Positions 21,095 through 59,940 are shown, numbered from the stretch's first letter. The stretch: 64,000 nt of DNA from a bacterium (GCA_021781955.1 JAJXVV010000003.1:27933-91932); one strand, 5' to 3'. A program made the numbers and translations. The notes: generated from the sequence alone by a model not told the origin.

Positions 21095-21099
21095 CTTCT

Positions 21100-23829: not shown

Positions 23830-23830
23830 A

Positions 23831-24685: not shown

Positions 24686-24904
24686 GGCGCTCGGCTGTTT
24701 AGGATTCGCACTCGTTACTGCTGGCATATGGTTAGGGATAGTAATGCATTTTAGGAATAATTGTAAGGCGGTGCACCGAGGGGTCAGTCGATGCACCGCT
24801 TTACGCACTCGCCGCAAATATCTCAAGCGGCTAAGCAAAGAGGACGGAAGTCCTCACTGGTAAGAATCTCTCATGGACTGTAAAGATTTTGTAAAGCGCG
24901 TCCA

Positions 24905-24955
24905 GAAAGAACAAGGGCCGGTTCCGTTGCGGACCGGCCCTTGTTCTGTTTCTCT
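24905..24955 (-). terminator. Rho-independent terminator (bidirectional hairpin)
   Basis: A GC stem aagggccggttccg / cggaccggccctt is flanked by an A-run on one side and gttctgtttctctc on the other. Lies downstream of the secreted-protein gene ending at 24968. Confidence 0.5.
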
Positions 24956-24967
24956 CTCACTGTCGCC

Positions 24968-25606
24968 TTACTGCCCCACGACTTCCGCGCCGCCAGGGGC
25001 TTTCGTCACCTGCGCGGTCGCGACGGCGTAGCCGGGCGCGCTCACTTCTATAGAGAACTTCAGCTGATCGAGCGCCGTCCCGTAAATGCCATGCATGTTC
25101 GCCGGAAAATGCCCATAGCCGGATTGATTGTCGAAGTGCACCGTAACGCTGCCGTGCGCCGGGATCGTTATCCCCGTGAGAGGCTTGTAGTACCCCTCTT
25201 TCTTGCCGTTCGCCGAGTCGGTAATGGTGTAGTACGCCTCAAGATTCGAGAGCGTTTGATTGGTCAGATTGTTGATGACGAACTGCAAGTGGTCGCTGAC
25301 GGCATTGCCTGCCGCATCGACGTTATTCTCAACCATGACCGAAGTGAGTTTGATTCCTGACTTGGTCGAGGTGTTCTTGATTGGGTTCGGATACAGCCCC
25401 GGTACCACGTCCTCCGGATTTGCTCCCGCCGTTTGGCTTGTCGTTGACGCACCAGAGGTGGCAGACGGCTGCGTGTACGACGAAGGCGTATTCGGTGCAT
25501 TCGTCGCGACTGTTTGCGTCGCTGAACCGCCCGGATGCAATGCGAATATCACTATTGCTGCCACCGCGATGACGACGCCTCCGATTATGTATGCTGTTTT
25601 GTTCAT
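24968..25606 (-). CDS. secreted Ser/Thr-rich hypothetical protein
   Basis: Signal peptide/anchor MNKTAYIIGGVVIAVAAIVIFA, low-complexity linker, C-terminal globular domain. Last gene of the ABC-2 operon. Confidence 0.5.
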   Translation of the reverse strand: MNKTAYIIGGVVIAVAAIVIFALHPGGSATQTVATNAPNTPSSYTQPSATSGASTTSQTAGANPEDVVPGLYPNPIKNTSTKSGIKLTSVMVENNVDAAGNAVSDHLQFVINNLTNQTLSNLEAYYTITDSANGKKEGYYKPLTGITIPAHGSVTVHFDNQSGYGHFPANMHGIYGTALDQLKFSIEVSAPGYAVATAQVTKAPGGAEVVGQ

Positions 25607-33721: not shown

Positions 33722-33781
33722 AAGTTACCAACTCCGAGGAGGAACGGATGCTCTGGACTCCTTCACTAAAGGCGTCATTCC

Positions 33782-35119
33782 TTGGGGTGTATGGACACCA
33801 TTACGAGGGCACCCCTGGGCGGTATTAGCAGGCAGGCCGTACAAGCGCCCGTAAGGATCAAATACTGCCTGTATGCAAGAAAGAGCACCGAGAGTGAGGA
33901 GCGGCAGGTGCTTTCGATAGATAGCCAGATCAAGGAGATGCTCCAGCTGGCCGACCGAGAAGGGCTTGAGGTAGTGGAGATGAAGCGCGAGTCTCACTCG
34001 GCAAAGGAAACTGGCAAGCGGCCGGTATTCAATGAGATCGTCGACGAGCTCCGGGCTGGCAAGTATAACGGTATCCTCACCTGGGCACCGGATCGTATCA
34101 GCCGTAACGCCGGGGACCTTGGCAAGATTGTCGACCTCATGGATGCGGGAGCATTGATGGAGATTCGCACATACGGTCAGAGTTTCAAGAATAATCCGAA
34201 TGAGAAGTTCCTTCTCATGATTCTCGGCTCGCAAGCCAAACTCGAGAACGACAATCGCGGAGTGAACGTGAAGCGCGGGTTGCGGACGCGCTGCGAGATG
34301 GGTTTGCGGCCGGGCGTAGCACCGGTCGGCTACAACAACGAGAAGCATGCTGACAAGAAGTGCCACGCAATCGTTGATCCGGCGCGCGCGCCGATCGTGA
34401 AGCAGATGTTTGAGAAAGTCGCCAACGAGAAGTGGAGCGGCAGGCGCATACACCAGTGGCTCAAGTTCGAGCTCAACTTCAAGAGTCGGGGCAACAAGAA
34501 CATGACGCTTAGCAGCGTGTACGTAGTACTCCAGAACCACTTCTACTACGGCATGTTTGAGTACCCGGTAAACAGCGGGAATTGGTACGAGGGCAGACAC
34601 CAGCCGCTCATCACCAAAGAATTGTTCGACAAGACGCAAGAGCAACTCAAGCGCGACCGGATCGTGCGCTCCGACATTAAGGAATTTGCCTTCACCAAGC
34701 TTATGGTATGCGGCCTGTGTGGCTCCGGCATCTCCGCTGACGAGAAGTTTAAGAAGCTCAAGGATGGAACCTCTAACCGCTATGTGTACTACGGCTGCAC
34801 CCGAGCGCGGGACAAGAGCTGTAAGGGCGGCTACGTGCGCGAGGAGGCGCTCATCGAGCAGATGGTGAAAGTGATGGACAAGGTCGATTTCAACAAGATG
34901 GCCATGCGTGACAAGTTCGAGGCCGAGGTAGAGCGCATGCGGAAGTTCCAGCGTGCATTCACTGGCGGAGATGATGCCAAACCACGGAAGGACATAGATC
35001 TGTGCGACTACGCGAAGTACCTGCTCAAGGAAGGCAGCGTTACGGAAAAACGAGAGCTGCTACTTTGCATCAAAAGCAAGCTGGTGCTTACCAGAAGCGA
35101 ATTGAAACTCGAAAACTAG
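33782..35119 (+). CDS. large serine recombinase (resolvase/integrase family)
   Basis: N-terminal resolvase domain with nucleophile context YARKSTESEE and a conserved GILTWAPDRISRN block, then a recombinase domain and a zinc-ribbon (CGLCGS...YYGC...C). About 445 aa. Confidence 0.8.
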   Translation: MGCMDTITRAPLGGISRQAVQAPVRIKYCLYARKSTESEERQVLSIDSQIKEMLQLADREGLEVVEMKRESHSAKETGKRPVFNEIVDELRAGKYNGILTWAPDRISRNAGDLGKIVDLMDAGALMEIRTYGQSFKNNPNEKFLLMILGSQAKLENDNRGVNVKRGLRTRCEMGLRPGVAPVGYNNEKHADKKCHAIVDPARAPIVKQMFEKVANEKWSGRRIHQWLKFELNFKSRGNKNMTLSSVYVVLQNHFYYGMFEYPVNSGNWYEGRHQPLITKELFDKTQEQLKRDRIVRSDIKEFAFTKLMVCGLCGSGISADEKFKKLKDGTSNRYVYYGCTRARDKSCKGGYVREEALIEQMVKVMDKVDFNKMAMRDKFEAEVERMRKFQRAFTGGDDAKPRKDIDLCDYAKYLLKEGSVTEKRELLLCIKSKLVLTRSELKLEN

Positions 35120-36052
35120 TTATCTAGAATCGAGGTCTCGCGTCTCGCCATTTATGTAATCAGGAATATCTCGGTTCTTTTCACTGATGATCCTTTCCAT
35201 CTCATCAATTTGACGAATTGTGGGTTTATCGTCGTGACGCATAGCAATTTGACGTCCTTTTGCAAGATATCGTTTTGCTGCTCGGAATCGATATGCAGTC
35301 TTCAGATCATTGGCTAAGTTATGGTATGCGATCGCGGCAAGAGGATCATTCAATTCCTCAAACAACGCTGCGGCAACAAGAAAGCTGTCGGTAAATTTCT
35401 TAACATGGGCATTTAATTTGCGGGCATCACCGTTTGAAAGCAGTAACAAATATTCAGGCAGAGGATAACGCATAAATTCGTATCTGCTCCAAAGTTTTGT
35501 TCGCAGACCACCGCGCATGCAAACGACCTTGTATTGTATATAACGAGAACTTTCAATGCTGCCTTTCGCCATTAAAACAAGTGCTTGAATTCTCTTATTT
35601 CCAGTTTGGTTTGCAAGTGAAATAGCATCGGCGAGCGAGCTATCAATCCCGGCTTCGAGTGTCTGCACTTCAGCAGATAATGAGTCAAACTCCTGTTTTT
35701 CAGCTTCGGTCGCAAACTCGACCCATCTTGGCGGGAGTTTTAGCATCGCCATTCGATGGCGACGCAGCACAACCTGATGCATTGACATATCTGCAAGGCG
35801 TCCCAAAAAATGAGCGCGAAGATCCTTTAAATTTAGTGCTGAGGTTATCTTTAACCCTTCTACGAGGAGAGCCAATATTTTCAGATTGTCTTCCACTGGA
35901 GATAGAACACCAATGGCTACATCGATAAATTGAAGGCGGGTGTGAGGATCTTTAATTTGAGGATCCAGCTTTAACAAGTTGGCACGCGCTTGAGTACGCT
36001 TGCCCTCCGACGCCAAAGTAAGCGCTTTTTTAATTTCATCTTTTTGTGACAT
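35120..36052 (-). CDS. hypothetical alpha-helical protein (third gene of HNH/DUF4238-like cassette)
   Basis: 310 aa. Lower GC than its surroundings. Its start overlaps the upstream gene end by 17 nt; its stop abuts the recombinase stop (convergent, 0-nt gap). Confidence 0.5.
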   Translation of the reverse strand: MSQKDEIKKALTLASEGKRTQARANLLKLDPQIKDPHTRLQFIDVAIGVLSPVEDNLKILALLVEGLKITSALNLKDLRAHFLGRLADMSMHQVVLRRHRMAMLKLPPRWVEFATEAEKQEFDSLSAEVQTLEAGIDSSLADAISLANQTGNKRIQALVLMAKGSIESSRYIQYKVVCMRGGLRTKLWSRYEFMRYPLPEYLLLLSNGDARKLNAHVKKFTDSFLVAAALFEELNDPLAAIAYHNLANDLKTAYRFRAAKRYLAKGRQIAMRHDDKPTIRQIDEMERIISEKNRDIPDYINGETRDLDSR

Positions 36053-36962
36053 GGCGATATTGGTACCACAATTTTAATTCATGCCAGCGCATCGAAGCTT
36101 GGTGTCGCAGTATTTTAAGAATAAAGAAAAAGTCCAGCGGATAGCGGCGGTACCAATGGCGACGAGCTCTTGAGCTGTTTGCTATAAAGTATTTATAAGA
36201 ATGCCCCACAGTCATACGGTTCGATTCCTCAACCTCAGTTTTATCCCTGAGTACATACCCCCGTAACGGGCTTCGGCTCATGCAAAGTAATATCTCTGGA
36301 GAAAGTGGAAGATACACCTCGACTCGTTCTTGCCCAAGGTCAGGACCGTAAGCACGCTGCCATTGGAGTTCAGGATTGAATACCTGACAAGGGTCGTCAG
36401 AGGTGATGTATTTTGCGCCCCCATCCGAACAGAGGAAGGCGATGTTCATATCCATGAGCATCATTGCCACATCAGGCAGGAGCTGAACGAAATTCAGCTT
36501 ATGGCCATTTTCCATTTCTTGCTTTAGGCCTTGGCGTTCTTCTGGAGTAACGTCGGGGCTCATTTGTTCCATCAACTGATCGTGAAAGCGCTGCATGTTA
36601 TCCCTGAAGCGTGGCGTACGTTGAAGCATCGCTGCAACGAATACACGTAACGTTATGCGTTCGTCTTCAGTGAGTGGTAATCGCTGACTGATCTTATCTT
36701 TGAAAAGAGCTGCATATTTTCCTTCAAGGGTCGCTAGCGTTTCTTCGATGGAATAGTTTTTCTCGCCAGACTTCAGCTTAAGCGTGTATAGATCCTTTTC
36801 AACGAAAACGTTCGTTATCGAACTTTTACGGCCCTTCTTCTCGCCTTTATTAAAAGTCCAGAGATAGGAGGTCTTTCTAAAAAGGAAGTCCGAAGCGGCC
36901 CACTCTCGTAGGTAGCATTGCGGAACGTAATGTTGTCTGGTTGGACCTTTTGCCACGACCAA
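36036..36962 (-). CDS. DUF4238-like protein (hypothetical)
   Basis: The N-terminus TRQHYVPQCYLREW matches the HYVPQ-YL motif I recall as defining DUF4238. TTG/GTG start with AGGGG about 7 nt upstream. AT-richer than the host background. Confidence 0.5.
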   Translation of the reverse strand: MVVAKGPTRQHYVPQCYLREWAASDFLFRKTSYLWTFNKGEKKGRKSSITNVFVEKDLYTLKLKSGEKNYSIEETLATLEGKYAALFKDKISQRLPLTEDERITLRVFVAAMLQRTPRFRDNMQRFHDQLMEQMSPDVTPEERQGLKQEMENGHKLNFVQLLPDVAMMLMDMNIAFLCSDGGAKYITSDDPCQVFNPELQWQRAYGPDLGQERVEVYLPLSPEILLCMSRSPLRGYVLRDKTEVEESNRMTVGHSYKYFIANSSRARRHWYRRYPLDFFFILKILRHQASMRWHELKLWYQYRHVTKR

Positions 36963-36990
36963 ACGATACCCCTACTTTGTCTTTTCCGCA

Positions 36991-37767
36991 CTAAGGAGCG
37001 AAAGGGTCTAGGGCATCATGATTTGGAGATACGTTCCTTTCGGAAATTCCCAGTGCTGCGCCCTGCGGGACAAGACCCGATGGAAGAACATAGAAACCTG
37101 CACAACCTCTCGCGTCTTGGTCGCGTACCTTACCCAAGTCTTTCCAATCGTAAACATCGAGCGCGAAGAAGCACATCCATGGACCGTTGTTATCCGCCTG
37201 ATTCCAAACACATTCATAGGTAAGATTACCTTTGTTACACTGGACTTTATCGAGATTGTTTTTCGCGCGATTGTCTTTTATAGCTTGAACGAATGCAGCG
37301 TGCTGAGGAAGGATCGGATCGATAACCGGCTTACCATGTACCATGCGCCCGCGAGGAAATGGGGTTACGAGTGCACAGTTATCTCGTATATCGAGCACCG
37401 GTTCTTTGTATAGAGCGGCATGAAAGCCGCTGATCCAGCGCCATACAGCTTCGTCAACATCCAAGTTCGTGAGGGCACCAAGTTGTGGATTTATGACCAG
37501 GCGGCGATGTTTCGGATCCGATGGTTTTTTGCCGTACCGAAGTGCGATAAGCTGGGCAATCTTTTCATCGGTTAAGGTGTGCGCACTGTTGCAAGCTTGG
37601 TGCGTCGGCAAAATCAAGGGATCTTTATGATCCGTTTGGAAGATAGAGTCGGGCGGAACATGATCGCGATTTTTGACATCTCCTGCCGCGAACATTTTCC
37701 CGCACAAATAGCAGAACGGAAGGTTCTGCACTGGGCGACGTTCAGTTTGCGTAATGAGCGAAATCAT
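36991..37767 (-). CDS. HNH-nuclease-domain protein (N-terminal HNH-like motif plus about 190-aa unknown C-terminal domain)
   Basis: C-x2-C ... NRDHVPP ... HQACNSAH follows the HNH pattern (Zn ligands plus catalytic His-Pro). Start at MISLITQ (cat at 37765-37767). The longer ORF-track version (to 38058) reads through tRNA-Ser and is an artefact. Confidence 0.5.
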   Translation of the reverse strand: MISLITQTERRPVQNLPFCYLCGKMFAAGDVKNRDHVPPDSIFQTDHKDPLILPTHQACNSAHTLTDEKIAQLIALRYGKKPSDPKHRRLVINPQLGALTNLDVDEAVWRWISGFHAALYKEPVLDIRDNCALVTPFPRGRMVHGKPVIDPILPQHAAFVQAIKDNRAKNNLDKVQCNKGNLTYECVWNQADNNGPWMCFFALDVYDWKDLGKVRDQDARGCAGFYVLPSGLVPQGAALGISERNVSPNHDALDPFAP

Positions 37768-37811
37768 ATTGAGTCGGACTATTTTACGACGAAAACGCCC
37801 CGACGTGGGAC

Positions 37812-37841
37812 GGTCGCGAAACACGGTCTCACGTTCCTGCG
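37812..37841. repeat. direct repeat copy B (abuts/overlaps by 2 nt the 3' end of tRNA-Ser)
   Basis: See copy A at 17241-17270. Confidence 0.6.
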
Positions 37842-37926
37842 GAGAGGGAGGGATTCGAACCCTCGATACCGTTTCCAGTATGCCGCATTTCGAGTGCGGT
37901 GCCTTCGACCACTCAGCCACCTCTCC
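37840..37926 (-). tRNA. tRNA-Ser (anticodon CGA), long variable arm, no encoded CCA
   Basis: Reverse complement folds as GGAGAGG / D-arm / CCGCA-CTCGAAA-TGCGG / 18-nt variable arm / GAGGG-TTCGAAT-CCCTC / CCTCTCC plus G. Confidence 0.85.
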
Positions 37927-38063
37927 CAGTACCACCCCGAAAGGGGTGGTCCTCCCGCAAAACGCGGGGAAAATGACCTGGCCACCATCAAAATAGCACA
38001 CTTTCGAGCCGTGAAAAAATGCGTTACACTGCAGACGATTCGCGCATGCTGCGAACAAAAGAC

Positions 38064-38135
38064 GGCCCTATCGTCTAGTGGTTAGGACAGCAGCTTTTCA
38101 AGCTGTTAACTCGGGTTCGATTCCCGATAGGGTCA
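38064..38135 (+). tRNA. tRNA-Glu (anticodon TTC), no encoded CCA
   Basis: GGCCCTA acceptor with D-arm GTCT/GGAC, anticodon arm GCAGC-TTTTCAA-GCTGT, T-arm TCGGG-TTCGATT-CCCGA, TAGGGTC plus A. Confidence 0.8.
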
Positions 38136-38136: not shown

Positions 38137-38706
38137 GTGGACACTACCGATACCAGCCCGGTCGACGAAGCGCTCGCGAAAGCGCTACAGGAGGGCGACG
38201 AGCAGGCGCTCGCGGTCTTGATGGATCGCTACACTGGCAAACTCCTGCGCTACGGGCGGCGCTTCCTCACCTCGCAGGACGACATCGCCGATATCGTGCA
38301 AGACGTCTTCATATCGGTCTACGAAAACATCCGCGACTTCGACGCGACCCGCCGCTTCTCGCCGTGGATCTACCGTATCGCGCACAATGCGTTCGTCAAC
38401 GCACTACGCAAGCGAGCGCACGGGCCACTCTACGGACTCGACCTCGATCTCGACCGCGTGATGCCCCATCTCGTCTACGAGGATCCGGACAAGAAAGAGA
38501 AAGAACGAGCGGAGCTGCGTGTAGTACTGGAGCAAGGCCTCGGCAAGCTCTCCCCTGCCTATCGCGAGGTCATCGATTTGTACTACTTCGAGGACTTCAG
38601 CTATCAGGAAATAGCGGACGTTTTGCATGTGCCACTCGGTACGGTCAGCATTCGCCTCTCGCGCGCCAAAGCAGCGCTCAAGAAAACACTTCCCAAAGAC
38701 CTATGA
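38137..38706 (+). CDS. ECF-subfamily RNA polymerase sigma-70 factor
   Basis: Region 2 (DIVQDVFISVY, FSPWIYRIAHN) and region 4 (YREVIDLYYFEDFSYQEIADVLHVPLGTV). Apparent GTG start 2 nt after the tRNA-Glu; first ATG is codon 29, so the exact start is uncertain. Confidence 0.7.
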   Translation: MDTTDTSPVDEALAKALQEGDEQALAVLMDRYTGKLLRYGRRFLTSQDDIADIVQDVFISVYENIRDFDATRRFSPWIYRIAHNAFVNALRKRAHGPLYGLDLDLDRVMPHLVYEDPDKKEKERAELRVVLEQGLGKLSPAYREVIDLYYFEDFSYQEIADVLHVPLGTVSIRLSRAKAALKKTLPKDL

Positions 38707-39416
38707 GCGACGACACCATCCAGCAGCACATACATGAGCAGGTATTGAGCCGCGTCAAAAGTGGCAGCGTGCACATGCGCTCACGCGCGTACTTTTTCCT
38801 GCGCGTGACGACGACCGCGGTGACCGCGCTCCTCGTGCTCGGCATCTCATCGCTCATCTTGAGCTTCATCGGTTTCTCCATCCACGCGAGCGGGCAGGAC
38901 ATCCTGCTCGGCTTCGGAGCGCGCGGTATCGGCACTTTTTTCGCGCTCTTCCCTTGGCCGCTCTTTATCGCAGACCTCTTGCTCATGCTCGCCCTCGAGT
39001 GGTGTTTGCAGGGATTCCGTTTCGGCTACCGCTTCTCGCTCGTCTCGATATTCGTCCTTACCTTCGCCATGAGTTGGTTCCTCGGTTTTCTGATCGAGCT
39101 CACTCCCCTCCATGACTCGCTCCTCTCAGCGGCCGATCGCGGCGAACTCCCGATCGCCGGCGGCCTCTACGAGCATATCCGCGACCCGCACCACGACCTC
39201 GGCATCTTCCGCGGCACGGTCTTTTCGGTGCAGAACGGCCAGGTCATGATCGGACACGATGACGGCGACCACGACCCGGACGACGGCACCTGGACCGTCG
39301 CGCTCCCGCCCGACACGCCGCCGCCGCAGGTGGGAGATCGCATGCTCGTCTTCGGCAGCTCGACCGGCTCGCAGGTGGACGCGTATGGCATCGAGCATCT
39401 CTCGCCCGAGCAATAG
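38703..39416 (+). CDS. putative anti-sigma factor / membrane protein
   Basis: ATGA overlap with the sigma gene stop. Several TM helices and a C-terminal extracytoplasmic domain. No recognisable zinc-binding anti-sigma motif. Confidence 0.45.
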   Translation: MSDDTIQQHIHEQVLSRVKSGSVHMRSRAYFFLRVTTTAVTALLVLGISSLILSFIGFSIHASGQDILLGFGARGIGTFFALFPWPLFIADLLLMLALEWCLQGFRFGYRFSLVSIFVLTFAMSWFLGFLIELTPLHDSLLSAADRGELPIAGGLYEHIRDPHHDLGIFRGTVFSVQNGQVMIGHDDGDHDPDDGTWTVALPPDTPPPQVGDRMLVFGSSTGSQVDAYGIEHLSPEQ

Positions 39417-39496
39417 AAACCGCCATGAAAGAAATCGCCCCGCCGCACGTAGTAGTGGCATGAGACCGCTTCCACAGCTCGTCTCGTCCTCGCCAT

Positions 39497-39979
39497 ATGA
39501 AACGCATCATCGCTTCTATCGTTTTCATTATTACCTTTGCCGTCTACGCGGGATACCAACATCTCGTTAGCGCCTCGCCGACGGCACTCGCCGCTACGGG
39601 TGCCGCGACCGCTTTTGCTGCTGGCGCTGCCGCTTCAACGGCAAGCGCATCTGGATCGTCCGCGCCACCTTCGAGCGCTTCCGCATCAAACGGCCAATAC
39701 AAGGACGGCGCGTACACGGGCGACGCGGTCAGCGCGTACTACGGAACCGTTCAGGTACAAGCGGTAATAAAGAACGGCCGGCTCGCAAACGTCAATTTCC
39801 TGCAATACCCGAGCGATCGCAGCACGTCGCAATTCATCAACAGCCAAGCGATGCAGGGATTGGCGCAAGAGGCCGTCAACGCGCAGAGCGCCAATGTCGA
39901 CGGCGTCTCCGGGGCAACCGACACGACGATGGCGTTCCGTCAGTCGCTTTCGACCGCGCTTTCTGCGGCAGCGGCATAA
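39497..39979 (+). CDS. FMN-binding domain protein (secreted/anchored, flavinylation substrate)
   Basis: Signal anchor, Ala/Ser-rich linker, C-terminal FMN_bind-like domain with DGVSGATDTT (S-G-A-T flavinylation motif). Confidence 0.6.
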   Translation: MKRIIASIVFIITFAVYAGYQHLVSASPTALAATGAATAFAAGAAASTASASGSSAPPSSASASNGQYKDGAYTGDAVSAYYGTVQVQAVIKNGRLANVNFLQYPSDRSTSQFINSQAMQGLAQEAVNAQSANVDGVSGATDTTMAFRQSLSTALSAAAA

Positions 39980-39992
39980 CCTTGCACCTACC

Positions 39993-40853
39993 ATGCGGCA
40001 AACGCGCGACATCATGGGCATGCCGGTCATCGTCGAGATAGTCGGCGGCGATGAGGCCGCGCTCGAGGCGGTGTTCGCCTACTTCCGCGGGATCGATGAG
40101 CAGTTCAGCCCGTACAAAAAAGAAAGCGAGGTCTCGCGCCTCAGCGACGGCCGCCTTGCTAAGAGCGCCGCTTCGCGCGAGATGCGTGAGGTGCTTTTGC
40201 TCGCCGAACAAACCAAGCGCGAGACGAACGGCTATTTCGATATTTACACGCCGAGCGGTTCGTTCGACCCTTCCGGCCTCGTGAAAGGTTGGGCGATCCA
40301 AAAAGCCGCACAGCTTTTGCATGACAGGGGGCATCATAATTTCTGGGTCGAAGCGGGCGGCGACATCCAAACCTCCGGCCGCAACGCTGAAGGCGGCGAG
40401 TGGAGCGCCGGCATCCGCAATCCGTTCAATTCGTCCGAGATCGTGAAGGTCGTCTATCCGCGTGGCGCAGGCATCGCGACATCCGGCACCTACGTCCGCG
40501 GCAGCCACATCTACGATCCGCACCTGGGAGCTCCGGTGCGTTCCGAGCTCGTGAGCCTTACCGTTATCGGGAAAAACGTCTACGAGGCCGACCGCTTCGC
40601 CACGGCGGCTTTCGCCATGGGGCGTGACGGCATGTACTTCATCGAGCAGCACCCGGAACTCGAAGGCTACGCCATTGACGTACAGTGCCGCGCCACGCTC
40701 ACGAGCGGTTTTGCCGGATACACAATCGCTGCAAAGCCGTCCGGCGCGAAAGTTCTTGCAGAGGAACTGCCCGAGCGAAGCGAGTTTTCCGACGCAGGAA
40801 CCTTCGTGCCGGACGGCTCTCGGATATCATTACCGACGTATGCCACTTCGTAA
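39993..40853 (+). CDS. apbE: FAD:protein FMN transferase (ApbE family)
   Basis: ApbE family blocks (MGMPVIVEI, GYFDIY, GLVKGWAIQKAA, FWVEAGGDI, ATSGTYVRG). The C-terminal 30 aa are encoded by hairpin repeat copy 2. Confidence 0.7.
   Translation: MRQTRDIMGMPVIVEIVGGDEAALEAVFAYFRGIDEQFSPYKKESEVSRLSDGRLAKSAASREMREVLLLAEQTKRETNGYFDIYTPSGSFDPSGLVKGWAIQKAAQLLHDRGHHNFWVEAGGDIQTSGRNAEGGEWSAGIRNPFNSSEIVKVVYPRGAGIATSGTYVRGSHIYDPHLGAPVRSELVSLTVIGKNVYEADRFATAAFAMGRDGMYFIEQHPELEGYAIDVQCRATLTSGFAGYTIAAKPSGAKVLAEELPERSEFSDAGTFVPDGSRISLPTYATS
40736..40817. repeat. hairpin repeat element copy 2 (24-bp imperfect inverted arms, conserved 34-nt loop)
   Basis: Arms are gccgtccggcgcgaaagttcttgc and gcaggaaccttcgtgccggacggc (21/24 complementary). 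The loop agaggaactgcccgagcgaagcgagttttccgac is 30/34 identical to copy 1. Lies inside the apbE 3' end and just upstream of the next gene's start. Confidence 0.6.
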
Positions 40854-41568
40854 AACGATCCTCTCGATAGCGATGCTCGCGATATTCTCGACGTACGCGT
40901 TCTACGAGCACGCGCACAGCGACAGCGGAAATCTCGCAGCGCTCATCATGAGCGACCTCACGGGCCGCGAGCAAAACGGCATAGCTGCCGCTGACTCGCA
41001 CACCACTCCGTCGCAACAGACTGCAACGACCCCTGCACCGGCTGCGAGCGCTACCGCGCAACAACAGTACGCGCAATACCTCGCGCAGATCAATGCGCAA
41101 GCTGCGCGCCGCGGAGATGAAAGCTCATCTGAGGGCGAAGGTGAGGGCGGTGAGGGGCGACGTCTTGCGACCACGCAGCCAGCACCCGCCCCCGCACAGA
41201 CGCAAGCAGCAACCCCTGCGCAATCCGCCCAAACGCAACCAGCTCAGACCTCTGCTCCAGCGCAGCCGCAACAGCCGCAGGGACAGTACAAGGATGGCAC
41301 GTACACCGGACCGAGCGTGTTCGTCTACTACGGCAACGTGCAGGTGCAGGCCATCATCCAGGGCGGCAAGATAGCCGACGTCAAGTTCCTCCAATACCCG
41401 AGCGATCGCAGCACGTCGCAGTACATTAATAGCCAGGCCATGCCGATGCTGACCCAGGAGGCGATCGCTGCGCAGAGCGCCAATGTGAGCGGCGTCTCCG
41501 GCGCATCCGAGACGAGCAGCGGCTTCGTGCAGTCGCTCGGTCCAGCGCTCGCGCAAGCGCACGCATAA
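40840..41568 (+). CDS. FMN-binding domain protein, paralog 2 (Gln/Ala/Pro-rich linker)
   Basis: Signal anchor, long low-complexity linker, C-terminal domain about 70% identical to the 39497 protein, with NVSGVSGASETS (S-G-A-S motif). Start at MPLRKTIL (atg 40840). Confidence 0.6.
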   Translation: MPLRKTILSIAMLAIFSTYAFYEHAHSDSGNLAALIMSDLTGREQNGIAAADSHTTPSQQTATTPAPAASATAQQQYAQYLAQINAQAARRGDESSSEGEGEGGEGRRLATTQPAPAPAQTQAATPAQSAQTQPAQTSAPAQPQQPQGQYKDGTYTGPSVFVYYGNVQVQAIIQGGKIADVKFLQYPSDRSTSQYINSQAMPMLTQEAIAAQSANVSGVSGASETSSGFVQSLGPALAQAHA

Positions 41569-41582
41569 CAACGCAAGATACT

Positions 41583-43103
41583 ATGCCGAGATTCATGGAT
41601 GAATTTTTGAACAAGGTGACCATGTACCGCCTGTTGGTCTATTACCTCGGCGGACTCCTCCTCATCTCTGCCAGTTTCTCGGCTATCGGCATGCTTCCGT
41701 ACGATCCCGTCAATGTTCTCGCGAGCGCAGGCTTCCTCATCGCGGTGTGCTGGCTTTCCAACATCATCTTCGCGCGTTTCTGGAGCGTGCCGCCCAATGC
41801 CGAATCTTCGCTCATCACGGCACTCATCCTCTCGCTCATCATCACGCCAACCTGGCCGGACGCGTCATTCTTCTTCCTTCTGTGGGCAGGACTCCTCGCC
41901 ATGGGGTCGAAGTATTTGCTGTCGGTACGCGGCAAACACGTGTTCAATCCTGCCGCGTTCGGCGTCGCCATCACGGCGCTCGCGCTCAAGGACTCGGCCA
42001 CCTGGTGGGTCGCTGGCAATCTGCCGCTCATGCTCTTCATTCTCGCGGGCGGCATCTTGGTCGTGCGCAAGATCCACCGCACCGACCTCGTGATCCCGTT
42101 CTTCGCAGCAGGCATCATAAGCTCGCTCATGTTCATACCGCTCACGCCGCAAGACGTCATCTCGGCGCTCACCGCGACGCTTTTGCACACGACGCTCTTC
42201 TTCTTTGGCTTCGTGATGCTCACCGAGCCTCTGACCACGCCGCCGCGACGCGCGGGCCGCATCGCGTACGGTGCGCTCGTCGGCATACTCTTCGCGCCCT
42301 GGGTGCATGTGGGATCGCTCTACTTCACGCCTGAACTCGCGCTCCTTGCGGGCAATGTCTTCTCGTTCCTCATCAGCCCCAAGTACAAAGCGGTGCTCCA
42401 GCTCTCACAGGTCCGCAAGCTCGCCAACGACACGTACGAGTTCATTTTCTCGGGCCGCGTACCGCACTTCCAGCCCGGACAATTTGCGGAATGGACGCTC
42501 GACGCCGACACGTCAGACTCGCGCGGCAACCGCCGCTGGTTCACCATCGCCTCCTCGCCCACCGAGAACGACGTTCGGCTCGGCATCAAGTTCTATGCGG
42601 ACCCGAGCACCTACAAAACGTTCCTCGCTGATTTCCGCAACGGCCGCAAAATACTCACCGGGAGCATCGCGGGAGATTTCACGATGCCGAAGAATCCTAA
42701 GCGCAAGCTCGCCTTCATCGCCGGCGGTATCGGCGTCACCCCTTTCCGCAGCATGGTGAAGTATCTGCACGATCGCAACGAGCGGCGCGATGCGGTGCTT
42801 CTCTACTCGAACCGCTCGGAAGCGGAGATCGCCTATCGTGACATATTCGACGCTGCCGAGCGCGCGGGCATCGGTTTTCGCGCTCATTACACGCTCACCG
42901 ACAAGAGCGTCGCGCCCACCTGGCAAGGCGAGCGCGGATTCGTCGATGCCAACATGATCACCCGCACGATGCCGGATTACAAAGAGCGGACATTCTACAT
43001 CTCCGGACCGCCGTCGATGGTGGGCACCTTCAAGCATCTCCTGCACGAAATGGGCGTCCCGCGCCGCCGGATCAAGACCGACTACTTCCCGGGATTCGCT
43101 TGA
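41583..43103 (+). CDS. membrane-bound FAD/NAD(P)-binding oxidoreductase (polytopic N-terminal domain fused to FNR-like C-terminal domain)
   Basis: About 240-aa multi-TM N-terminal domain (FNPAAFG). The C-terminal domain has an RxFT..S FAD-binding motif (RRWFTIASSP) and a GGIGVTPF NAD(P)-binding motif. Confidence 0.6.
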   Translation: MPRFMDEFLNKVTMYRLLVYYLGGLLLISASFSAIGMLPYDPVNVLASAGFLIAVCWLSNIIFARFWSVPPNAESSLITALILSLIITPTWPDASFFFLLWAGLLAMGSKYLLSVRGKHVFNPAAFGVAITALALKDSATWWVAGNLPLMLFILAGGILVVRKIHRTDLVIPFFAAGIISSLMFIPLTPQDVISALTATLLHTTLFFFGFVMLTEPLTTPPRRAGRIAYGALVGILFAPWVHVGSLYFTPELALLAGNVFSFLISPKYKAVLQLSQVRKLANDTYEFIFSGRVPHFQPGQFAEWTLDADTSDSRGNRRWFTIASSPTENDVRLGIKFYADPSTYKTFLADFRNGRKILTGSIAGDFTMPKNPKRKLAFIAGGIGVTPFRSMVKYLHDRNERRDAVLLYSNRSEAEIAYRDIFDAAERAGIGFRAHYTLTDKSVAPTWQGERGFVDANMITRTMPDYKERTFYISGPPSMVGTFKHLLHEMGVPRRRIKTDYFPGFA

Positions 43104-43169
43104 GCAATGAAACGGTCGTGTCGCGGCGCGCTCCTTGCGGAGCGCGCCGCTTTTTTGGATACTGGTGCG

Positions 43170-43886: not shown

Positions 43887-44405
43887 CTAGTTGGTACCGA
43901 AAGTCGTGCCCGCGACGGTGCCGTCGGCGTTGGTGAGAAGCGTATCCTTGTGCAGATCGAACTGCTTGTCGCCGTCATCCGTGTAGATGAGCGCCTGGTA
44001 ACGCTGTCCCGGCTCGGTCGCGCGCAAGAGCGGGACCTGCACATTGGCGTGCGTACCCGCCGGGAAAAGCGCCGCGCCGAGCGTACGGCCCGTGTTGTCG
44101 CGAATGGCGACCCAGCCGAGCTTCGGCAAGGTGACCGAGGCAACGGTGACGATGCTGCCCGCTCCCTGATCGTTGACGGTGATGAGGCCGCCGCTCACGT
44201 TCAATTCGGCGCCCGTATTCGCGAGGGATGCCGCACCGGATGCGGAGGCAGCGGTCGATGTACTCGTGTCGACGACCGAACCGGCGGTCGTGCTCGCGAT
44301 GGTCGAGCCGACCTTCGATTTGGTGCCGGCATACCATGCGCCGATAATGAGGAGAACCACGATAATGCCCGCGATGATCCGATTGCCGTTGTCGTTGAGA
44401 TCCAT
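43887..44405 (-). CDS. membrane-anchored hypothetical protein
   Basis: Start at MDLNDNG (cat at 44403-44405), one TM, S/T/A-rich linker, C-terminal beta-rich domain. Confidence 0.4.
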   Translation of the reverse strand: MDLNDNGNRIIAGIIVVLLIIGAWYAGTKSKVGSTIASTTAGSVVDTSTSTAASASGAASLANTGAELNVSGGLITVNDQGAGSIVTVASVTLPKLGWVAIRDNTGRTLGAALFPAGTHANVQVPLLRATEPGQRYQALIYTDDGDKQFDLHKDTLLTNADGTVAGTTFGTN

Positions 44406-44466
44406 ACGGAATATGCCTGTGTTATTAACGTATATGCCGCACAGTGTATGGGTACGAGCAGCTCTG

Positions 44467-45099
44467 TCAAATACCGGCCGCAACAAAGACCTCCGGGGCA
44501 GGAACGACGCCTTCGCGCAAGATAACGACGCCAGAAGCGCAGTCGATGACCGTGGAAGGCGCGGCTGGAGGCAAAACGCCTCCATCGATGACGAGCGAGA
44601 TGCTTGATACGGCTTCGCCGAGCTGGATGAGGATGTCGTCGATGCGGCGCGGCGCAGCCGCGCCGCTCACGTTCGCGCTCGTCGCCGTGACGGGAGTTCC
44701 GAAAACGCGGGTGAGCGCCACGCAAAAATCGTGATCGGGTATGCGGAAACCGAACGTCGCTCTGCCTTTCGCGATGCCCGCGTCCAAGCCGATTCGTTTC
44801 TTCACGACGAACGTCGCCTTCCCTTTCGGCAAACGCTCGGCCAGCCGCCGCGCCGTATCGTTCACTTCGCCGTACCGCTCGGCCATCGCGAGATCGGCGA
44901 CGATCGCGTGCATCGGCTTGTCGTCCCGCCGCCCCTTTAACGCGTACACTTTCGCGACAGCTTCATCAGAAAGTGCGTCTGCGCCGAGGCCGTACAGGGT
45001 GTCGGTCGGATACAGCACGACCCCTCCGGCACGCAATGCGGCGGCCGCCTTGGCGGCCGCCGCATCGATACCCGCCTCCGCAAGTGAAATGCGTTCCAT
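44467..45099 (-). CDS. tsaC: L-threonylcarbamoyladenylate synthase (TsaC/YrdC/Sua5 family)
   Basis: YrdC-fold blocks (VVLYPTDTLYGLG, ATSANVSG, STVIDC). Confidence 0.8.
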   Translation of the reverse strand: MERISLAEAGIDAAAAKAAAALRAGGVVLYPTDTLYGLGADALSDEAVAKVYALKGRRDDKPMHAIVADLAMAERYGEVNDTARRLAERLPKGKATFVVKKRIGLDAGIAKGRATFGFRIPDHDFCVALTRVFGTPVTATSANVSGAAAPRRIDDILIQLGEAVSSISLVIDGGVLPPAAPSTVIDCASGVVILREGVVPAPEVFVAAGI

Positions 45100-54173: not shown

Positions 54174-54327
54174 CGTTGCCGATCGATGAGCCCGCGCTAT
54201 GTCGCGGGCTCTTTATTTGTCCGCCGACGCGGTTGCGCGTTCGTGCTCGTGGGTGTACAGTCTCGCACATCGGCCGAGCGCTCTCGCCACGGGTGACGCA
54301 TCGGTCTCTTTGTTTTATCGTGTCGCT

Positions 54328-54858
54328 ATGTATAGACTGCTGAAAAAAATCGCTTCGACCCCGCAGGTGACCATGCCGAGGAGCACTTTTGCCGATGCGG
54401 AATTCGAGACGCTCGGCGAGCGGCTCAGAGAGAGGATATTCTCATCCCTGAAAGGCTCGCTCGCGATACGCCAAGTCGCGGCCGGATCATCGAACGCCGA
54501 GGAATGGGAATTGACCGCGCTCGGCAACGCCTATTACGACATCGAGCGCTTCGGGATCAAGTTCGTCGCGTCCCCGCGCCACGCCGACGCGCTCCTCGTG
54601 AGCGGGCCGGTCTCGCGCAACATGGCAGAGGCGCTGCGCCGCACGTACGAGGCGACCCCCGCTCCAAAGATCGTCGTCGCGGTCGGCGACGGTGCGATCG
54701 ACGGCGGCATCTTCAAGGGCTCCTACGCGATAGCCGGCGGCGTCAAAGATGTCATTCCGGTCGATATCGAGATCCCGGGCGATCCGCCGACGCCGCAAGC
54801 CATCATCGCGGCTCTGCTGCAAGTCGTGGAGCGCCTCGGCACAAAACGCACGCCGTAA
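54328..54858 (+). CDS. NuoB/HycG-like small subunit, degenerate (all four [4Fe-4S] Cys ligands replaced)
   Basis: Strong colinear similarity to HycG/NuoB (ERFGIKFVASPRHADALLVSGPV, IPVDIEIPG.PPTP). At the positions where I recall HycG/NuoB having Cys-containing motifs (CxxCxxC, GACxxSGG, PGCPP), this protein reads VAAGSSNAEE, GDGAIDGG and PGDPP. Confidence 0.75.
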   Translation: MYRLLKKIASTPQVTMPRSTFADAEFETLGERLRERIFSSLKGSLAIRQVAAGSSNAEEWELTALGNAYYDIERFGIKFVASPRHADALLVSGPVSRNMAEALRRTYEATPAPKIVVAVGDGAIDGGIFKGSYAIAGGVKDVIPVDIEIPGDPPTPQAIIAALLQVVERLGTKRTP

Positions 54859-54859
54859 T

Positions 54860-56902
54860 ATGAGTATCCTTCCGCAGTACGGCATAACGCTTGCACTGGC
54901 GCTCTATGCAGCGGGCGCGCTCTCCTCGCTCGTTCTCGGCGCACGGAAGACGGAAGGCGCGGCCCTGATAGCATCGCACGCGTTCGCGGCCCTCGCCGCG
55001 CTCGCGGCGTTCGTTTCGGCGTGCTCGATCGTCGTCTCGGGCGCCGCAGCGCTCTTCGACGCGGGCAGCATCGGGCTCATGGCGCATGTGCTCACGATTC
55101 GTATCGATCCGCTTTCCGCGCTTTTCCTCGCCGTCATTTCAACGGTCGTATTCGCGGCATCGATCTACGGCATCGCCTACCAGAGGCAATTCCTCGGCGT
55201 GTACCGCTCATCTGGGTTCGGCTTCTTCTACAACGTGTTCCTCGCGAGCATGTCGCTCGTCGTCATGGCCGACAACGCGATCCTCTTCCTGCTTGCCTGG
55301 GAACTGATGGCCGTGTGCTCCTACGCGCTCGTCGTGTTCGAACGTCACGAGTCGCATGCCGTTGCCGCAGGCGCTCTTTACCTCCTGATTTCGCAGCTCG
55401 GCGCAGCGTGCTTGTTGGCCGCATTCGTCATACTCTACGGCATAGTCGGTTCGTGGGATTTCGAGGTGCTGCGCGCTCATACGACACAGCTCTCGGCCCT
55501 CGCGCAAAACGGCGTCCTGCTGCTTGCGCTCGTCGGTTTCGCCTCGAAAGCCGGCGTCATCCCGCTCCACATCTGGCTGCCGGAGGCGCATCCCGCTGCG
55601 CCCTCGCACGTGTCGGCAATCATGTCCGGCGTGATGATCAAGACCGCGCTTTTCATGATCATCCGTTTTTTCATCGAATTCTTTCCCGCGAGCGCATCGT
55701 GGGGGCTGGTCATCCTCGTCCTCGGCGGCATCTCGAGCCTGCTCGGAGTCCTGTACGCCCTCTCGGAGCATGACATTAAACGCCTCCTCGCTTTCCACAG
55801 CGTCGAGAACGTGGGCATTATCCTGCTCGGCATCGGCGCTTCGATCTGCTTCTTCTCATACGGCCTGCCCGCACTCGGCTACCTCGCGCTCGCAGCGGCG
55901 CTTTACCACACCGTCAACCACGCGCTCTTTAAGTCGCTTCTGTTCCTTTCCGCCGGCTCCGTGGTGCACTCGACCGGCACGCGCAACATGGAAGAGTACG
56001 GCGGCCTCATCCGCACGATGCCGTGGACCGCTCTTTTCTTCCTCGTCGGCGCGATCGCCATTTCCGGCCTGCCTCCATTCAACGGTTTCGTGAGCGAATG
56101 GCTCACCTTCCAGAGCCTGTTCGCTGGCATCAAAGCGCTCCCCGCGCTCGGGAAAGCGGTCTTTCTATTCGGCGCCGCCTCGCTCGCCTTCACCGGAGGG
56201 CTCGCTGCCGCGTGTTTCGTGAAGGCCTTCGGCGTGACATTCCTCGCGCGCGCGCGCAGCAGCCACGCCTCTCATGCGCACGAGACACCGGCACTGATGA
56301 TACTTCCCATGGGCCTGCTTGCGCTCCTCACGTTCCTGCTCGGCGTAGGCGCCTCCTCGTTCGCGCCCATACTCTCCACGATCGCGCTCTCGCTGCGCGG
56401 CGGCTCAGCGGGAGCGCCGCACGCGAACCCGCTGCAAGCGATCACCGTCGGCTCATCCGCAACGCTCTCAATGGCATGGATTGCCGCAGCGCTCTTGGCA
56501 GCCATCGCGCTCACGTATTTCTACACGCTATTCGCATCAAAGGGCACGCGACGCACCGTCTCTCGCACATGGGATTGCGGATATCCGCTCTCGCCTCGCA
56601 TGGAGATCACGGCGACGGGATTCTCGCGTTCCATCATCGTCATATTCCGCGGACTGCTGCGTCCGAGCATCCAGCGAAGCGCCGAGTATCACGACGCGGC
56701 GATGCGCTACTTCGCCAAGTCGCGCAGCGTGTACTTGCACATGCCAAATCTCTATCGCACGTACCTGTATGACCCCGCGGGGCTATTGATCGAGAAGGGC
56801 GCGATGCGCGCCCGCCGCATCCAAACCGGCAACCTCAACCTGTACCTGCTCTACATCCTCCTCACGATCGCCGCTCTCCTGGTGTGGACCATTCATTCAT
56901 AA
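54860..56902 (+). CDS. NuoL/HyfB/MrpA-like antiporter-type membrane subunit
   Basis: 680-aa polytopic protein with complex-I antiporter-subunit blocks (WLPEAHPAAPSHVSAIMSG, multiple TM). Confidence 0.8.
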   Translation: MSILPQYGITLALALYAAGALSSLVLGARKTEGAALIASHAFAALAALAAFVSACSIVVSGAAALFDAGSIGLMAHVLTIRIDPLSALFLAVISTVVFAASIYGIAYQRQFLGVYRSSGFGFFYNVFLASMSLVVMADNAILFLLAWELMAVCSYALVVFERHESHAVAAGALYLLISQLGAACLLAAFVILYGIVGSWDFEVLRAHTTQLSALAQNGVLLLALVGFASKAGVIPLHIWLPEAHPAAPSHVSAIMSGVMIKTALFMIIRFFIEFFPASASWGLVILVLGGISSLLGVLYALSEHDIKRLLAFHSVENVGIILLGIGASICFFSYGLPALGYLALAAALYHTVNHALFKSLLFLSAGSVVHSTGTRNMEEYGGLIRTMPWTALFFLVGAIAISGLPPFNGFVSEWLTFQSLFAGIKALPALGKAVFLFGAASLAFTGGLAAACFVKAFGVTFLARARSSHASHAHETPALMILPMGLLALLTFLLGVGASSFAPILSTIALSLRGGSAGAPHANPLQAITVGSSATLSMAWIAAALLAAIALTYFYTLFASKGTRRTVSRTWDCGYPLSPRMEITATGFSRSIIVIFRGLLRPSIQRSAEYHDAAMRYFAKSRSVYLHMPNLYRTYLYDPAGLLIEKGAMRARRIQTGNLNLYLLYILLTIAALLVWTIHS

Positions 56903-56907
56903 CGCGT

Positions 56908-57834
56908 ATGTACGTACTTTCGTTCGTCCTCAATGCAATCGTGGTCTCGGCCCTCTCACCGCTTGCGGTCGGGCTCATTCGCACACTTAAGGCTCGGATA
57001 CAGGTGCGCGTCGGGGCAGACCCGTTCCAGCCGTATCGCGACCTCTCGAAGCTCTTTCGCAAGGATGAGGTCATATCTGAGGACGCGTCATGGATATTCA
57101 CTGCCTCACCCTACATCGTGTTCGGCACGACGCTCGCGCTCGCAGCTGGCGTGCCGATCCTCTCCTCCGCGCTCACGTTCGCGCCGCTCAGCGACATGCT
57201 CGTGTTCGTGTACATGCTCGCTGTCGGCACCTTCTTTCTCGCGCTTTCCGGTATCGACGCCGGCAGCGGCTTCGGGGGCTTCGGCGCGAGCCGCGAAATG
57301 ACGATCGCGGCGCTGACGGAAGGCGGCCTCATACTCTCGCTTGCGGCGCTCGCACTCCTGACCGGCAGCAGCATGTTCCTGACGATGGCGAGCGTGACGA
57401 TGACGCTTCCGCTCGCGAAAGTGCTGCCGCTCATTATCGCCGCTGCCGCTTTCTTCATTGCTCTCCTTGCCGAGAACGCGCGTTACCCCGTCGACAACCC
57501 GGCGACCCATCTCGAGCTCACCATGGTACATGAGGCGATGCTTCTGGAACATTCCGGCAAAGGGCTCGCGCTCATGGAATGGTCGGCGTCGAACAAGCTG
57601 CTCATATTCACCGCGATATTCGTGAACGTGTTCCTGCCGTGGGGTTCCCCGACGAGCCCTGGCCTCGCCGCCCTGTTCGTCGGCGCGATATGGTTCGCGC
57701 TCAAAACGCTTGCCGTCCTCGCGGGCATCGCATGCATCGAATCGGGCATGGCGAAGTTCCGGATATTCCGCGTTCCCGACCTCCTTTTCACGTCGTTCGT
57801 CCTGAGTGTGATCGCCATCGTCCTTACCGTATGA
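56908..57834 (+). CDS. NuoH/HycD-like membrane subunit
   Basis: Colinear with HycD/NuoH (RIQVRVGADPFQPYRDLSKLF, ARYPVDNPATHLEL, EW). Confidence 0.8.
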   Translation: MYVLSFVLNAIVVSALSPLAVGLIRTLKARIQVRVGADPFQPYRDLSKLFRKDEVISEDASWIFTASPYIVFGTTLALAAGVPILSSALTFAPLSDMLVFVYMLAVGTFFLALSGIDAGSGFGGFGASREMTIAALTEGGLILSLAALALLTGSSMFLTMASVTMTLPLAKVLPLIIAAAAFFIALLAENARYPVDNPATHLELTMVHEAMLLEHSGKGLALMEWSASNKLLIFTAIFVNVFLPWGSPTSPGLAALFVGAIWFALKTLAVLAGIACIESGMAKFRIFRVPDLLFTSFVLSVIAIVLTV

Positions 57835-58481
57835 TATTCGGTCTCGACATACTCACGGTCTGCGCGAGCCTCGTCTTTTTGCTCGCGCTCCTGATGAACC
57901 TCGTTCGCAAGAATACGACCTTAATATCGCTCTACGTCATCCAATCGGTCGCCATCGCGGCAGCGCTCGCGGTCCTGGGCGGTACCGATGGCGAGACGGG
58001 ATTGGTGTACGCCGCGCTCCTGACGCTCGCGGTCAAAGGCGTCATAGCGCCGACCTTCCTCTATCGTCTCATTAGCAAATATTCCGGGCATTTTTCCGCA
58101 GCATCCTACCTCTCGATGCCGCCAACGCTCGTCGGCCTCGCCTGCATGACCGCATTCTCCTTCCTCCTGGCGCCGCACCTTCCCTTTGCCGGCGTGAGCG
58201 CGGTCCCGCTCCTGTTCGCTGGCATATTCAGCGCGCTATTCCTCATGATCAATCGACGCGGTGCGCTCTCAGCCGTGGTCGGGGTACTCGCGCTTGAGAA
58301 CGCGGCCGTGCTGCTCTCTTCGACCCTTGGAGCGGTACATACCTTCGCGCTCGAATTCACGATCGCGTTCGATATCGCGGTATGGGTCGCCATCGCCACG
58401 GCATTCCTTCACATGATGCACCGCCAGTTCGGTATCGTCGACACCGACACGCGCCTCATATCGCGCCTCACGGAAGAATAA
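57831..58481 (+). CDS. HyfE/NuoK-related small membrane subunit
   Basis: 216-aa 6-7 TM protein. ATGA overlap with the upstream stop, and it sits where hyfE lies in hyf clusters. Confidence 0.55.
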   Translation: MIFGLDILTVCASLVFLLALLMNLVRKNTTLISLYVIQSVAIAAALAVLGGTDGETGLVYAALLTLAVKGVIAPTFLYRLISKYSGHFSAASYLSMPPTLVGLACMTAFSFLLAPHLPFAGVSAVPLLFAGIFSALFLMINRRGALSAVVGVLALENAAVLLSSTLGAVHTFALEFTIAFDIAVWVAIATAFLHMMHRQFGIVDTDTRLISRLTEE

Positions 58482-58484
58482 CGT

Positions 58485-59939: not shown

Positions 59940-59940
59940 T

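Follow-up and report, generated by a model that had tools for sequence, protein, structure and literature searches.

An NQR/RNF-like operon with two FMN_bind carriers and a leaderless ApbE in a Patescibacteria genome: a probable route for electrons from NAD(P)H to outer flavin carriers

How might a bacterial cell pass electrons from cytoplasmic NAD(P)H to flavin carriers outside its membrane, and in which compartment would those carriers acquire their flavin? These questions are raised by four co-directional genes in a 64,000-nucleotide (nt) stretch of bacterial DNA (GCA_021781955.1, JAJXVV010000003.1:27933-91932; hereafter the window, with positions counted from its first letter). On the + strand, positions 39497-43103 encode, in order, a carrier with a flavin mononucleotide (FMN)-binding FMN_bind domain (carrier 1), the flavin transferase ApbE, a second FMN_bind carrier (carrier 2), and a polytopic membrane protein with an FNR-type domain fused to it. 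The locus is an intact NQR/RNF-like operon, a further member of a known, bioinformatically defined class. We consider it probable that in this Patescibacteria genome it forms an NQR/RNF-like transmembrane electron-transfer system running from NAD(P)H to outer flavin carriers.

All four products are supported by Pfam. Carrier 1 (39497-39979, 160 amino acids [aa]) matches PF04205 (FMN_bind) at 31.4 bits and carrier 2 (40840-41568, 242 aa) at 25.7 bits, against a cutoff of 22, and ApbE (39993-40853, 286 aa), a short leaderless form, matches PF02424 at 143 bits. The fusion protein (41583-43103) carries PF03116 (NQR2_RnfD_RnfE; 43.6 bits, cutoff 27.7) and PF00175 (NAD_binding_1; 64.2 bits, cutoff 22). 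Carrier 1 and ApbE are 13 nt apart, ApbE and carrier 2 overlap by 14 nt, and another 14 nt separate carrier 2 from the fusion gene. The longest open reading frame (ORF) for ApbE begins at 39894, overlapping carrier 1, and gene callers on identical public contigs chose 39993 (MRQTRDIMGMPV...), so the latter is most likely the true start. For carrier 2, the start at 40840 gives MPLRK followed by a helix; the other option is 40873 (231 aa). From its second Met (502 aa), the fusion protein is identical on several public contigs, among them GCA_027428515.1 and GCA_027352215.1, where the gene order is also the same. Its closest named relatives belong to Candidatus Kaiserbacteria, Paceibacterota, and the Patescibacteria group, and the host genome is a member of the Patescibacteria (Kaiserbacteria-like). 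No second ApbE or FMN_bind gene was found elsewhere in the window. An initial annotation of this DNA, made from its sequence, had proposed these four genes, with the carriers flanking ApbE and the membrane/FNR fusion last, and both the ORF positions and the Pfam matches agree with it.

That annotation also likened the gene set to ApbE-associated electron-transfer modules in which anchored FMN_bind carriers are served by a cytoplasmic NAD(P)H-type FNR domain, a comparison that our analysis supports and that published catalogues of ApbE clusters make more specific. Meheust et al. 2021 (eLife, PMC8238504) defined flavinylation-associated clusters as those with ApbE or FMN_bind within five genes, and called “NQR/RNF-like” those that encode a PF03116+PF00175 fusion; most such systems came from Actinobacteria and the candidate phyla radiation. 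For Ktedonobacter racemifer, Huang et al. 2024 (PMC10979944) modelled the NQR/RNF-like complex, described its NqrB/RnfD-like subunit as lacking the flavinylated Thr, set the carrier on the outer face in a multimer model, and proposed that the vacant flavin site is visited by the covalent flavin of the NqrC/RnfG-like subunit. The locus described here fits this class, which includes members from the candidate phyla radiation: PF03116 is N-terminal and PF00175 C-terminal in a single protein, its gene directly follows those of ApbE and the two FMN_bind carriers on the same strand, and the membrane domain has no flavinylation loop of its own, the loop that bears the SQAT motif in E. coli RsxD being deleted. 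It differs from the published description in having two carrier genes around ApbE and, upstream of the operon, genes for an extracytoplasmic function (ECF) sigma factor and its putative anti-sigma factor, together with a promoter-like motif to match.

A scan of species-representative genomes returned at least 600 candidate stretches, of which at least 595 encode a relative of the fusion protein; counts on related loci given below refer to the best 80 of those at least 595. These 80 come from many Patescibacteria lineages, Chloroflexota (including the cultured Dictyobacter and Ktedonospora), Actinomycetota, and Mesorhizobium. The order FMN_bind-ApbE-fusion is found in 64/80, and because it recurs in most of these loci and in several phyla, the operon is not a chance arrangement. 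Possession of two carrier genes is rare, being seen in about 3/80 besides this strain (L048, L051, and L070). An OmpR-type two-component pair lies just downstream of the cluster in 14 to 16 related loci.

The membrane domain (41583-42380, fusion residues 1 to 266) is an NqrB/RnfD homologue, as Pfam, hhalign, and Foldseek agree. A profile of 23 homologues aligned with E. coli RsxD at an hhalign probability of 92.6%, the alignment placing the deleted loop of about 80 residues between helices 5 and 6. The domain shares FNPA and TEP/TDP motifs with RnfD. Its AlphaFold2 model (mean predicted local distance difference test score [pLDDT], 85.7; predicted TM-score [pTM], 0.82) has 12 helices, read as about 10 membrane spans, and retrieved only RnfD or NqrB chains among its top 15 Foldseek matches in the PDB (TM-score 0.58-0.69). 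Judged by reading its hydrophobic segments and their flanking charges, both ends of the domain are probably cytoplasmic. A family-profile PDB search reached RnfD over the C-terminal half only, and a single-sequence PDB search gave only a T-cell-receptor match, which was discarded as due to chance.

The initial annotation had raised the possibility of ferric-reductase-like haem sites in this domain. That idea is rejected: there was no PF01794 match at E<=0.01, the fold is that of RnfD/NqrB, and of the only four His residues (119, 165, 202, and 242), none appears, by reading of their positions in the model helices, to form a paired bis-His arrangement. A conserved xSA[ST]WW turn (41994-42008, fusion residues 138 to 142), predicted to lie at the outer face between helices 5 and 6, is similar in appearance to an ApbE acceptor motif. 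Asn or Asp stands at the xSA[ST]WW position in 4/77 homologues, so that A[ST]WW is not an obligate acceptor, and SATWW was rejected as a relic flavinylation site, because its counterpart in the alignment is QMTSW, where RsxD transmembrane helix 5 ends, and not SQAT. We speculate that the turn may line a flavin docking site.

The remainder of the fusion protein (42381-43103, residues 267 to 506) is an FNR-type domain that would bind flavin adenine dinucleotide (FAD) and NAD(P)H. In sequence these 240 C-terminal residues resemble the FAD/NAD domain of NqrF (2r6h, E 1.4e-14), and their fold matches include NqrF, flavohaemoglobin, and cytochrome b5 reductases. The motifs RRWFTIAS (at 317) and GGIGVTP (at 381) and the C-terminal aromatic FPGFA are present. 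Pfam and fold matches thus agree with the polytopic membrane protein fused to an FNR-type FAD/NAD(P)-binding domain that had been described in the initial annotation.

How far does this system resemble better-known redox systems? It shares with the Na+-NQR of V. cholerae the NqrB fold (TM-score about 0.6), an NqrF-like FAD/NAD part, NqrC-type FMN_bind domains, and maturation by ApbE, but lacks NqrA, NqrD, NqrE, and the 2Fe-2S domain, joins the NqrB-like and NqrF-like parts in one chain, and has neither the NqrB flavinylation site T236 nor its loop. Electron flow is presumably one-way and not semicircular, with no sign of ion pumping. NCBIfam scores are far below cutoff (nqrF 65.8 versus 295, NqrB 20.3 versus 414). 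RnfD chains are the best structural matches (8rbq_D and 9eri_D, TM-score 0.68-0.69), but the rnfD model TIGR01946 scores 23.6 against a cutoff of 207, and RnfA, RnfB, RnfC, and RnfE are absent, with none adjoining the operon and none among the other scanned genes of the window. Besides the loss of the SQAT loop, the system differs from RNF (E. coli RsxD/RsxG) in its minimal FMN_bind carrier domains of about 95 aa, which in a PDB search were closer to 8p2a than to NqrC or RnfG chains. In the Ndh2/EetAB/PplA/FmnB extracellular electron transfer system of Listeria, NADH electrons likewise reach ApbE-flavinylated surface FMN_bind domains, but the route runs through the quinone pool and EetA/B, whereas here a single fusion is predicted to cross the membrane; the Listeria transferase FmnB is a secreted lipoprotein, whereas the ApbE described here has no signal. 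NOX and ferric reductases (S. pneumoniae NOX, 8qt6) also join a membrane domain to a C-terminal FNR-type dehydrogenase, and the FNR part is a strong fold match, but the fusion protein has no six-helix bis-haem domain, PF01794 match, or paired His.

Both carriers begin with a basic N terminus followed by a hydrophobic helix. Carrier 1 consists of an N-terminal anchor (MKR plus a transmembrane segment), a 40-aa Ala/Ser linker, and an FMN_bind domain with the motif DGVSGAT, in which Thr141 (codon 39917-39919) is the acceptor. Carrier 2 has an MPLRK anchor with its transmembrane segment, a 121-aa linker (A 23%, Q 16%, T 11%, S 9%, P 8%), and the motif SGVSGAS with acceptor Ser223 (codon 41506-41508); Ser replaces the upstream Asp of the Dxx[st]gA[TS] acceptor motif. 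The two FMN_bind domains are 67% identical, and related locus L058 has a single carrier with about 70% identity to each. A profile of 29 carrier domains matched the crystal structure 8p2a_A in the PDB (E 2.4e-20), with DivSGAT opposite DAVSGAT; on the basis of a 2023 BBA Advances paper, we take 8p2a to be a domain of a multi-FMN protein of Streptomyces azureus. Armadillo-repeat matches to the same profile were spurious, with no single stretch over threshold. The S-G-A-[TS] motifs that had been read in both proteins are therefore present and align with the SGAT motif of 8p2a, and the linker of roughly 120 residues rich in Gln, Ala, and Pro is as first described.

In related carriers, the acceptor motif [VI][DNS]x[VI][ST]GA[TS] is universal (63/63), always 18 to 20 residues from the C terminus. 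Their linkers, rich in Pro/Ala/Thr/Ser when pooled, measure from 22 to 193 aa, a range within which the 121 aa of carrier 2 are unexceptional. It is plausible that this linker spans a cell wall, as the initial annotation suggested, and such linkers are common in the family. At least two Lys/Arg precede the conserved helix (LSxFVxxxFxxYA) in 61/65 carriers, and net charge is higher in the N-terminal flank than in the C-terminal flank in 56/65; because of this excess the carriers are predicted to be oriented N-in/C-out. That the helix is conserved suggests that it is kept as an anchor, packed against the membrane domain, and not cleaved off as a signal peptide. The carrier of L015 has an additional cytoplasmic N-terminal extension of about 60 aa ahead of its anchor helix.

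We postulate the following electron path. The C-terminal FNR-type domain would, by homology, oxidise NAD(P)H in the cytoplasm via FAD. Electrons would then cross the membrane through a non-covalent flavin in the NqrB/RnfD-like domain, the occupancy of which is suggested by the work of Huang et al. 2024, and pass to covalent FMN on Thr141 of carrier 1 and Ser223 of carrier 2. The operon ApbE is predicted, from the aligned motifs, to attach FMN at these two residues. The FMN_bind domains would be held at the outer face by the N-terminal helix and the flexible 40- and 121-aa tethers, and the carriers would deliver electrons to an extracytoplasmic acceptor. Ferric iron is one candidate, having been suggested for some clusters (PMC8238504); oxidants derived from the cell envelope or a host are more speculative candidates.

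Several points weigh against this interpretation. A literature search found no experimental study of any NQR/RNF-like member, and the predicted contact between carrier and membrane domain rests on the model of Huang et al. 2024. No recurrent terminal reductase or other acceptor gene adjoins the cluster in the 80 related loci. Pfam FAD_binding_6 has no match in the fusion protein at E<=0.01, so of the FAD_binding_6 and NAD_binding_1 pair anticipated by the initial annotation only the second was recovered as a Pfam match (PF00175); the FAD beta-barrel is recognised in the model and in the fold matches. Finally, a leaderless ApbE is hard to reconcile with the flavinylation of outward-facing carriers.

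This last point concerns the transferase itself, which otherwise looks active from its sequence. The best PDB match of the operon ApbE is V. cholerae ApbE (6nxi, E 2e-20); its SHIYDP stands opposite the V. cholerae SHIIDP, keeping the His for which the companion entry 6nxj has Gly, and the motifs KGW, ATSG, and AD..AT are retained as well. The protein begins only seven residues ahead of the MGMP motif in the first beta-strand and has no hydrophobic leader. The 66 related cluster-linked ApbEs, drawn from four phyla, are alike in this: each in-frame upstream region is either only a few residues long or without a hydrophobic window. The same leader test applied to a positive control, E. coli Ftp/ApbE, found its 20-residue lipoprotein signal (Kyte-Doolittle 15-residue maximum, 1.99), with 20 more residues between the signal and the MGT equivalent to MGMP. 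In L013 and L026, where ApbE is encoded on the opposite strand 2-4 kb upstream, it is leaderless too. Leaderless ApbE is a family-wide feature, not a local peculiarity, and it is not discussed for NQR/RNF-like clusters in Meheust 2021, Huang 2024, or a 2025 ApbE review. The initial annotation had named the locus for extracytoplasmic flavinylation. With the carriers predicted N-in/C-out, one half of that topology is supported, but the check for an ApbE export signal was negative here and in every relative examined, an outcome that the annotation itself had named as refuting its reading, and the label “extracytoplasmic flavinylation” is therefore unproven.

Three options can be set out for carrier maturation: FMN may be attached before the carriers are inserted, ApbE may leave the cell by an unrecognised route, or the carriers may not lie where their charge bias predicts. 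In the first, the same parts operate with flavinylation in the cytoplasm, where the leaderless ApbE loads the carriers before the chain is inserted or translocated. The uniform lack of leaders, read against a control in which the leader test detects a real lipoprotein signal, argues for this possibility, as do the constant distance of the acceptor from the carrier C terminus, the translational coupling of ApbE within the operon, and the existence of cytosolic ApbEs, for example in Klebsiella, which serve cytoplasmic substrates (2025 ApbE review). It is weakened by the periplasmic location that canonical ApbE requires to function (2025 ApbE review), by carriers without a twin-arginine motif, and by the literature on ApbE and on this class, which gave no example of export after flavinylation by ApbE. 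For this locus we regard cytoplasmic loading as possible but somewhat unlikely. For the class, we tentatively propose, with less than even confidence, that NQR/RNF-like ApbEs work in the cytoplasm and that already flavinylated chains are exported, without FAD export. Were cytoplasmic flavinylation true, no FAD export would be needed, and the maturation route would change while the direction of electron flow would not; were it wrong, the carriers would not be extracytoplasmic and the published model of the whole class would need revision.

The operon appears to be under dedicated control. Directly upstream of carrier 1 lie genes for an ECF-type sigma factor (38137-38706, +, 189 aa) and a multi-pass membrane protein (38703-39416, +, 237 aa) whose start overlaps the sigma stop codon (ATGA). 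The sigma factor consists of Sigma70_r2 and Sigma70_r4_2 only, scores above the TIGR02937 cutoff, and has SigW as its best NCBIfam match (E 9e-34). The 237-aa protein had no Pfam or NCBIfam match, known anti-sigma families included; from its position, that is, the overlap with the sigma gene and their co-occurrence, we infer that it is the anti-sigma factor. An ECF sigma factor gene lies upstream of the cluster in 13 related loci. In five of the related loci (L015, L027, L042, L043, and L058) a homologous sigma gene is directly upstream of the carrier gene, and the membrane protein is found with it in the same five (E 1e-13 to 5e-62).

Between the 237-aa gene and carrier 1 is a SigW-type ECF promoter-like motif, TGAAAG-N17-CGTAGTA (39426-39454, +), which resembles the Bacillus subtilis SigW consensus TGAAAC-N16-CGTA. 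It is the single match in the 64 kb to TGAAA-N16/17-CGTRNTA, for which 0.05 would be expected. This stricter CGTRNTA pattern was unmatched in related loci and was set aside there. A looser one, TGAAA-N16/17-[CG]GT[AG], matched related loci in a manner that tracks linkage to the sigma gene; alone, it is not rare in the window (3 matches versus 1.9 expected). The form TGAAA-N16-[CG]GTG stands at the equivalent position in L015, L027, L043, and L058, the related loci with the sigma/anti-sigma pair directly upstream and an intergenic gap, plus L033, that is, in 5/73 loci scanned (about 0.7 expected). No convincing conserved sigma-type motif was seen 5' of the sigma gene itself. The four operon genes thus appear, from these motifs, to be transcribed from an ECF-type promoter under the adjacent sigma/anti-sigma pair, and the system would therefore be inducible by an envelope signal.

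At the other end, a terminator-like hairpin (43123-43156, +; 12-bp stem with 11 G-C pairs, then T6) begins 20 nt past the fusion stop codon and probably marks the 3' end of the operon. A long ORF for an HhH-GPD DNA glycosylase starts at 43107, and because the operon hairpin falls within it, its true start is probably the ATG at 43170 (MNDEQQ...). Just 3' of the operon is a convergent gene for a DUF7282 protein (43887-44585, -), with a hydrophobic segment seen by eye; it is kept in the identical contigs and is not recurrent in related loci.

What acceptor might such a system serve? Reduction of iron is the leading published suggestion, and one alternative is that the locus encodes a ferric or other metal reductase dedicated to iron assimilation. 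VIT1 iron transporters occur in six NQR/RNF-like clusters (PMC8238504). In Bifidobacterium breve, an apbE mutant has been linked to growth under iron limitation, as has a cluster of a membrane FMN-binding protein with an FtsX-type ABC system. ABC ATPase genes recur nearby in 21/80 related loci, and genes for FtsX-type permeases and HlyD-like proteins in about 9 to 10. Homology of the B. breve genes to the NQR/RNF-like system is not demonstrated, however. The local regulator here is an ECF sigma factor, with no iron-responsive element visible, and no iron transporter adjoins the operon in the window, the Nramp gene being 35 kb off. Nothing in the window supports iron specifically, and we consider a dedicated metal reductase unlikely.

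Most Patescibacteria are not known to synthesise quinones, which weighs against a further alternative, that the carriers face the cytoplasm and that the operon encodes an NAD(P)H-dependent reductase of a membrane quinone or other lipid-soluble acceptor, acting through the NqrB-like domain in the manner of the final Na+-NQR steps, with no electron export. Such an arrangement would place the leaderless ApbE in the same compartment as its substrate, but it is highly improbable given the N-in/C-out charge bias of most carriers, their long tethers rich in Pro/Thr/Ser/Ala, a closest solved relative that is the FMN domain of a protein with a predicted N-terminal secretion signal, and the outer-face placement of the carrier in the published multimer model (PMC10979944). 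Export of electrons to outward-facing carriers remains the interpretation we prefer.

The rest of the window holds several further features. Next to the operon, positions 33725-38060 have a low G+C fraction (0.49-0.50, versus about 0.60 in the flanks), encode a large serine recombinase (33782-35119), a DUF4238 protein (36036-36962), and unannotated ORFs, and abut tRNA-Ser (37839-37926, -) and tRNA-Glu (38064-38135, +). The otherwise identical public contig L001 has other cargo there (a recombinase, a Peptidase_M78 protein, and an HTH protein), and the segment looks like a strain-variable integrative island. A second region of lower G+C (16000-25000, 0.51-0.56) contains a ParB_N and DNA methylase fusion (18727-20214) and two DUF347-repeat membrane proteins (23044-23877 and 23831-24838), and may be another mobile or acquired segment. 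The Nramp-type metal transporter (3892-5196) adjoins an RND efflux pump (5200-8295) and an HlyD-type adaptor (8302-9936), with more HlyD and FtsX genes at 10885-13973; no link was found between the transporter genes at 3892-9936 and the flavinylation operon. Positions 54199-61494 encode a membrane module like complex I or a group 4 hydrogenase, with NuoB-like (54199-54858), Proton_antipo_M (54749-56902 and 58485-59939), NuoH-like (56884-57834), and fused NuoC+NuoD-like (59692-61494) subunits. To our knowledge, such a module is unusual in a Patescibacteria genome, and it is relevant to redox economy.

Patescibacteria are generally considered to be without respiratory chains. For such cells, a self-contained route out of the cell for NAD(P)H electrons would be among the few means of shedding reducing power or of reducing iron or other external substrates. 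Because the class is already catalogued, the locus adds no new kind of system; it offers a clear-cut case, with two carriers that differ in tether length and a recognisable candidate ECF-controlled promoter. It also exposes an inconsistency that runs through the family, a transferase without an export signal serving substrates that look exported. The leaderless ApbE is the only element here able to change how the class is understood, and it bears on how extracytoplasmic flavoproteins mature.

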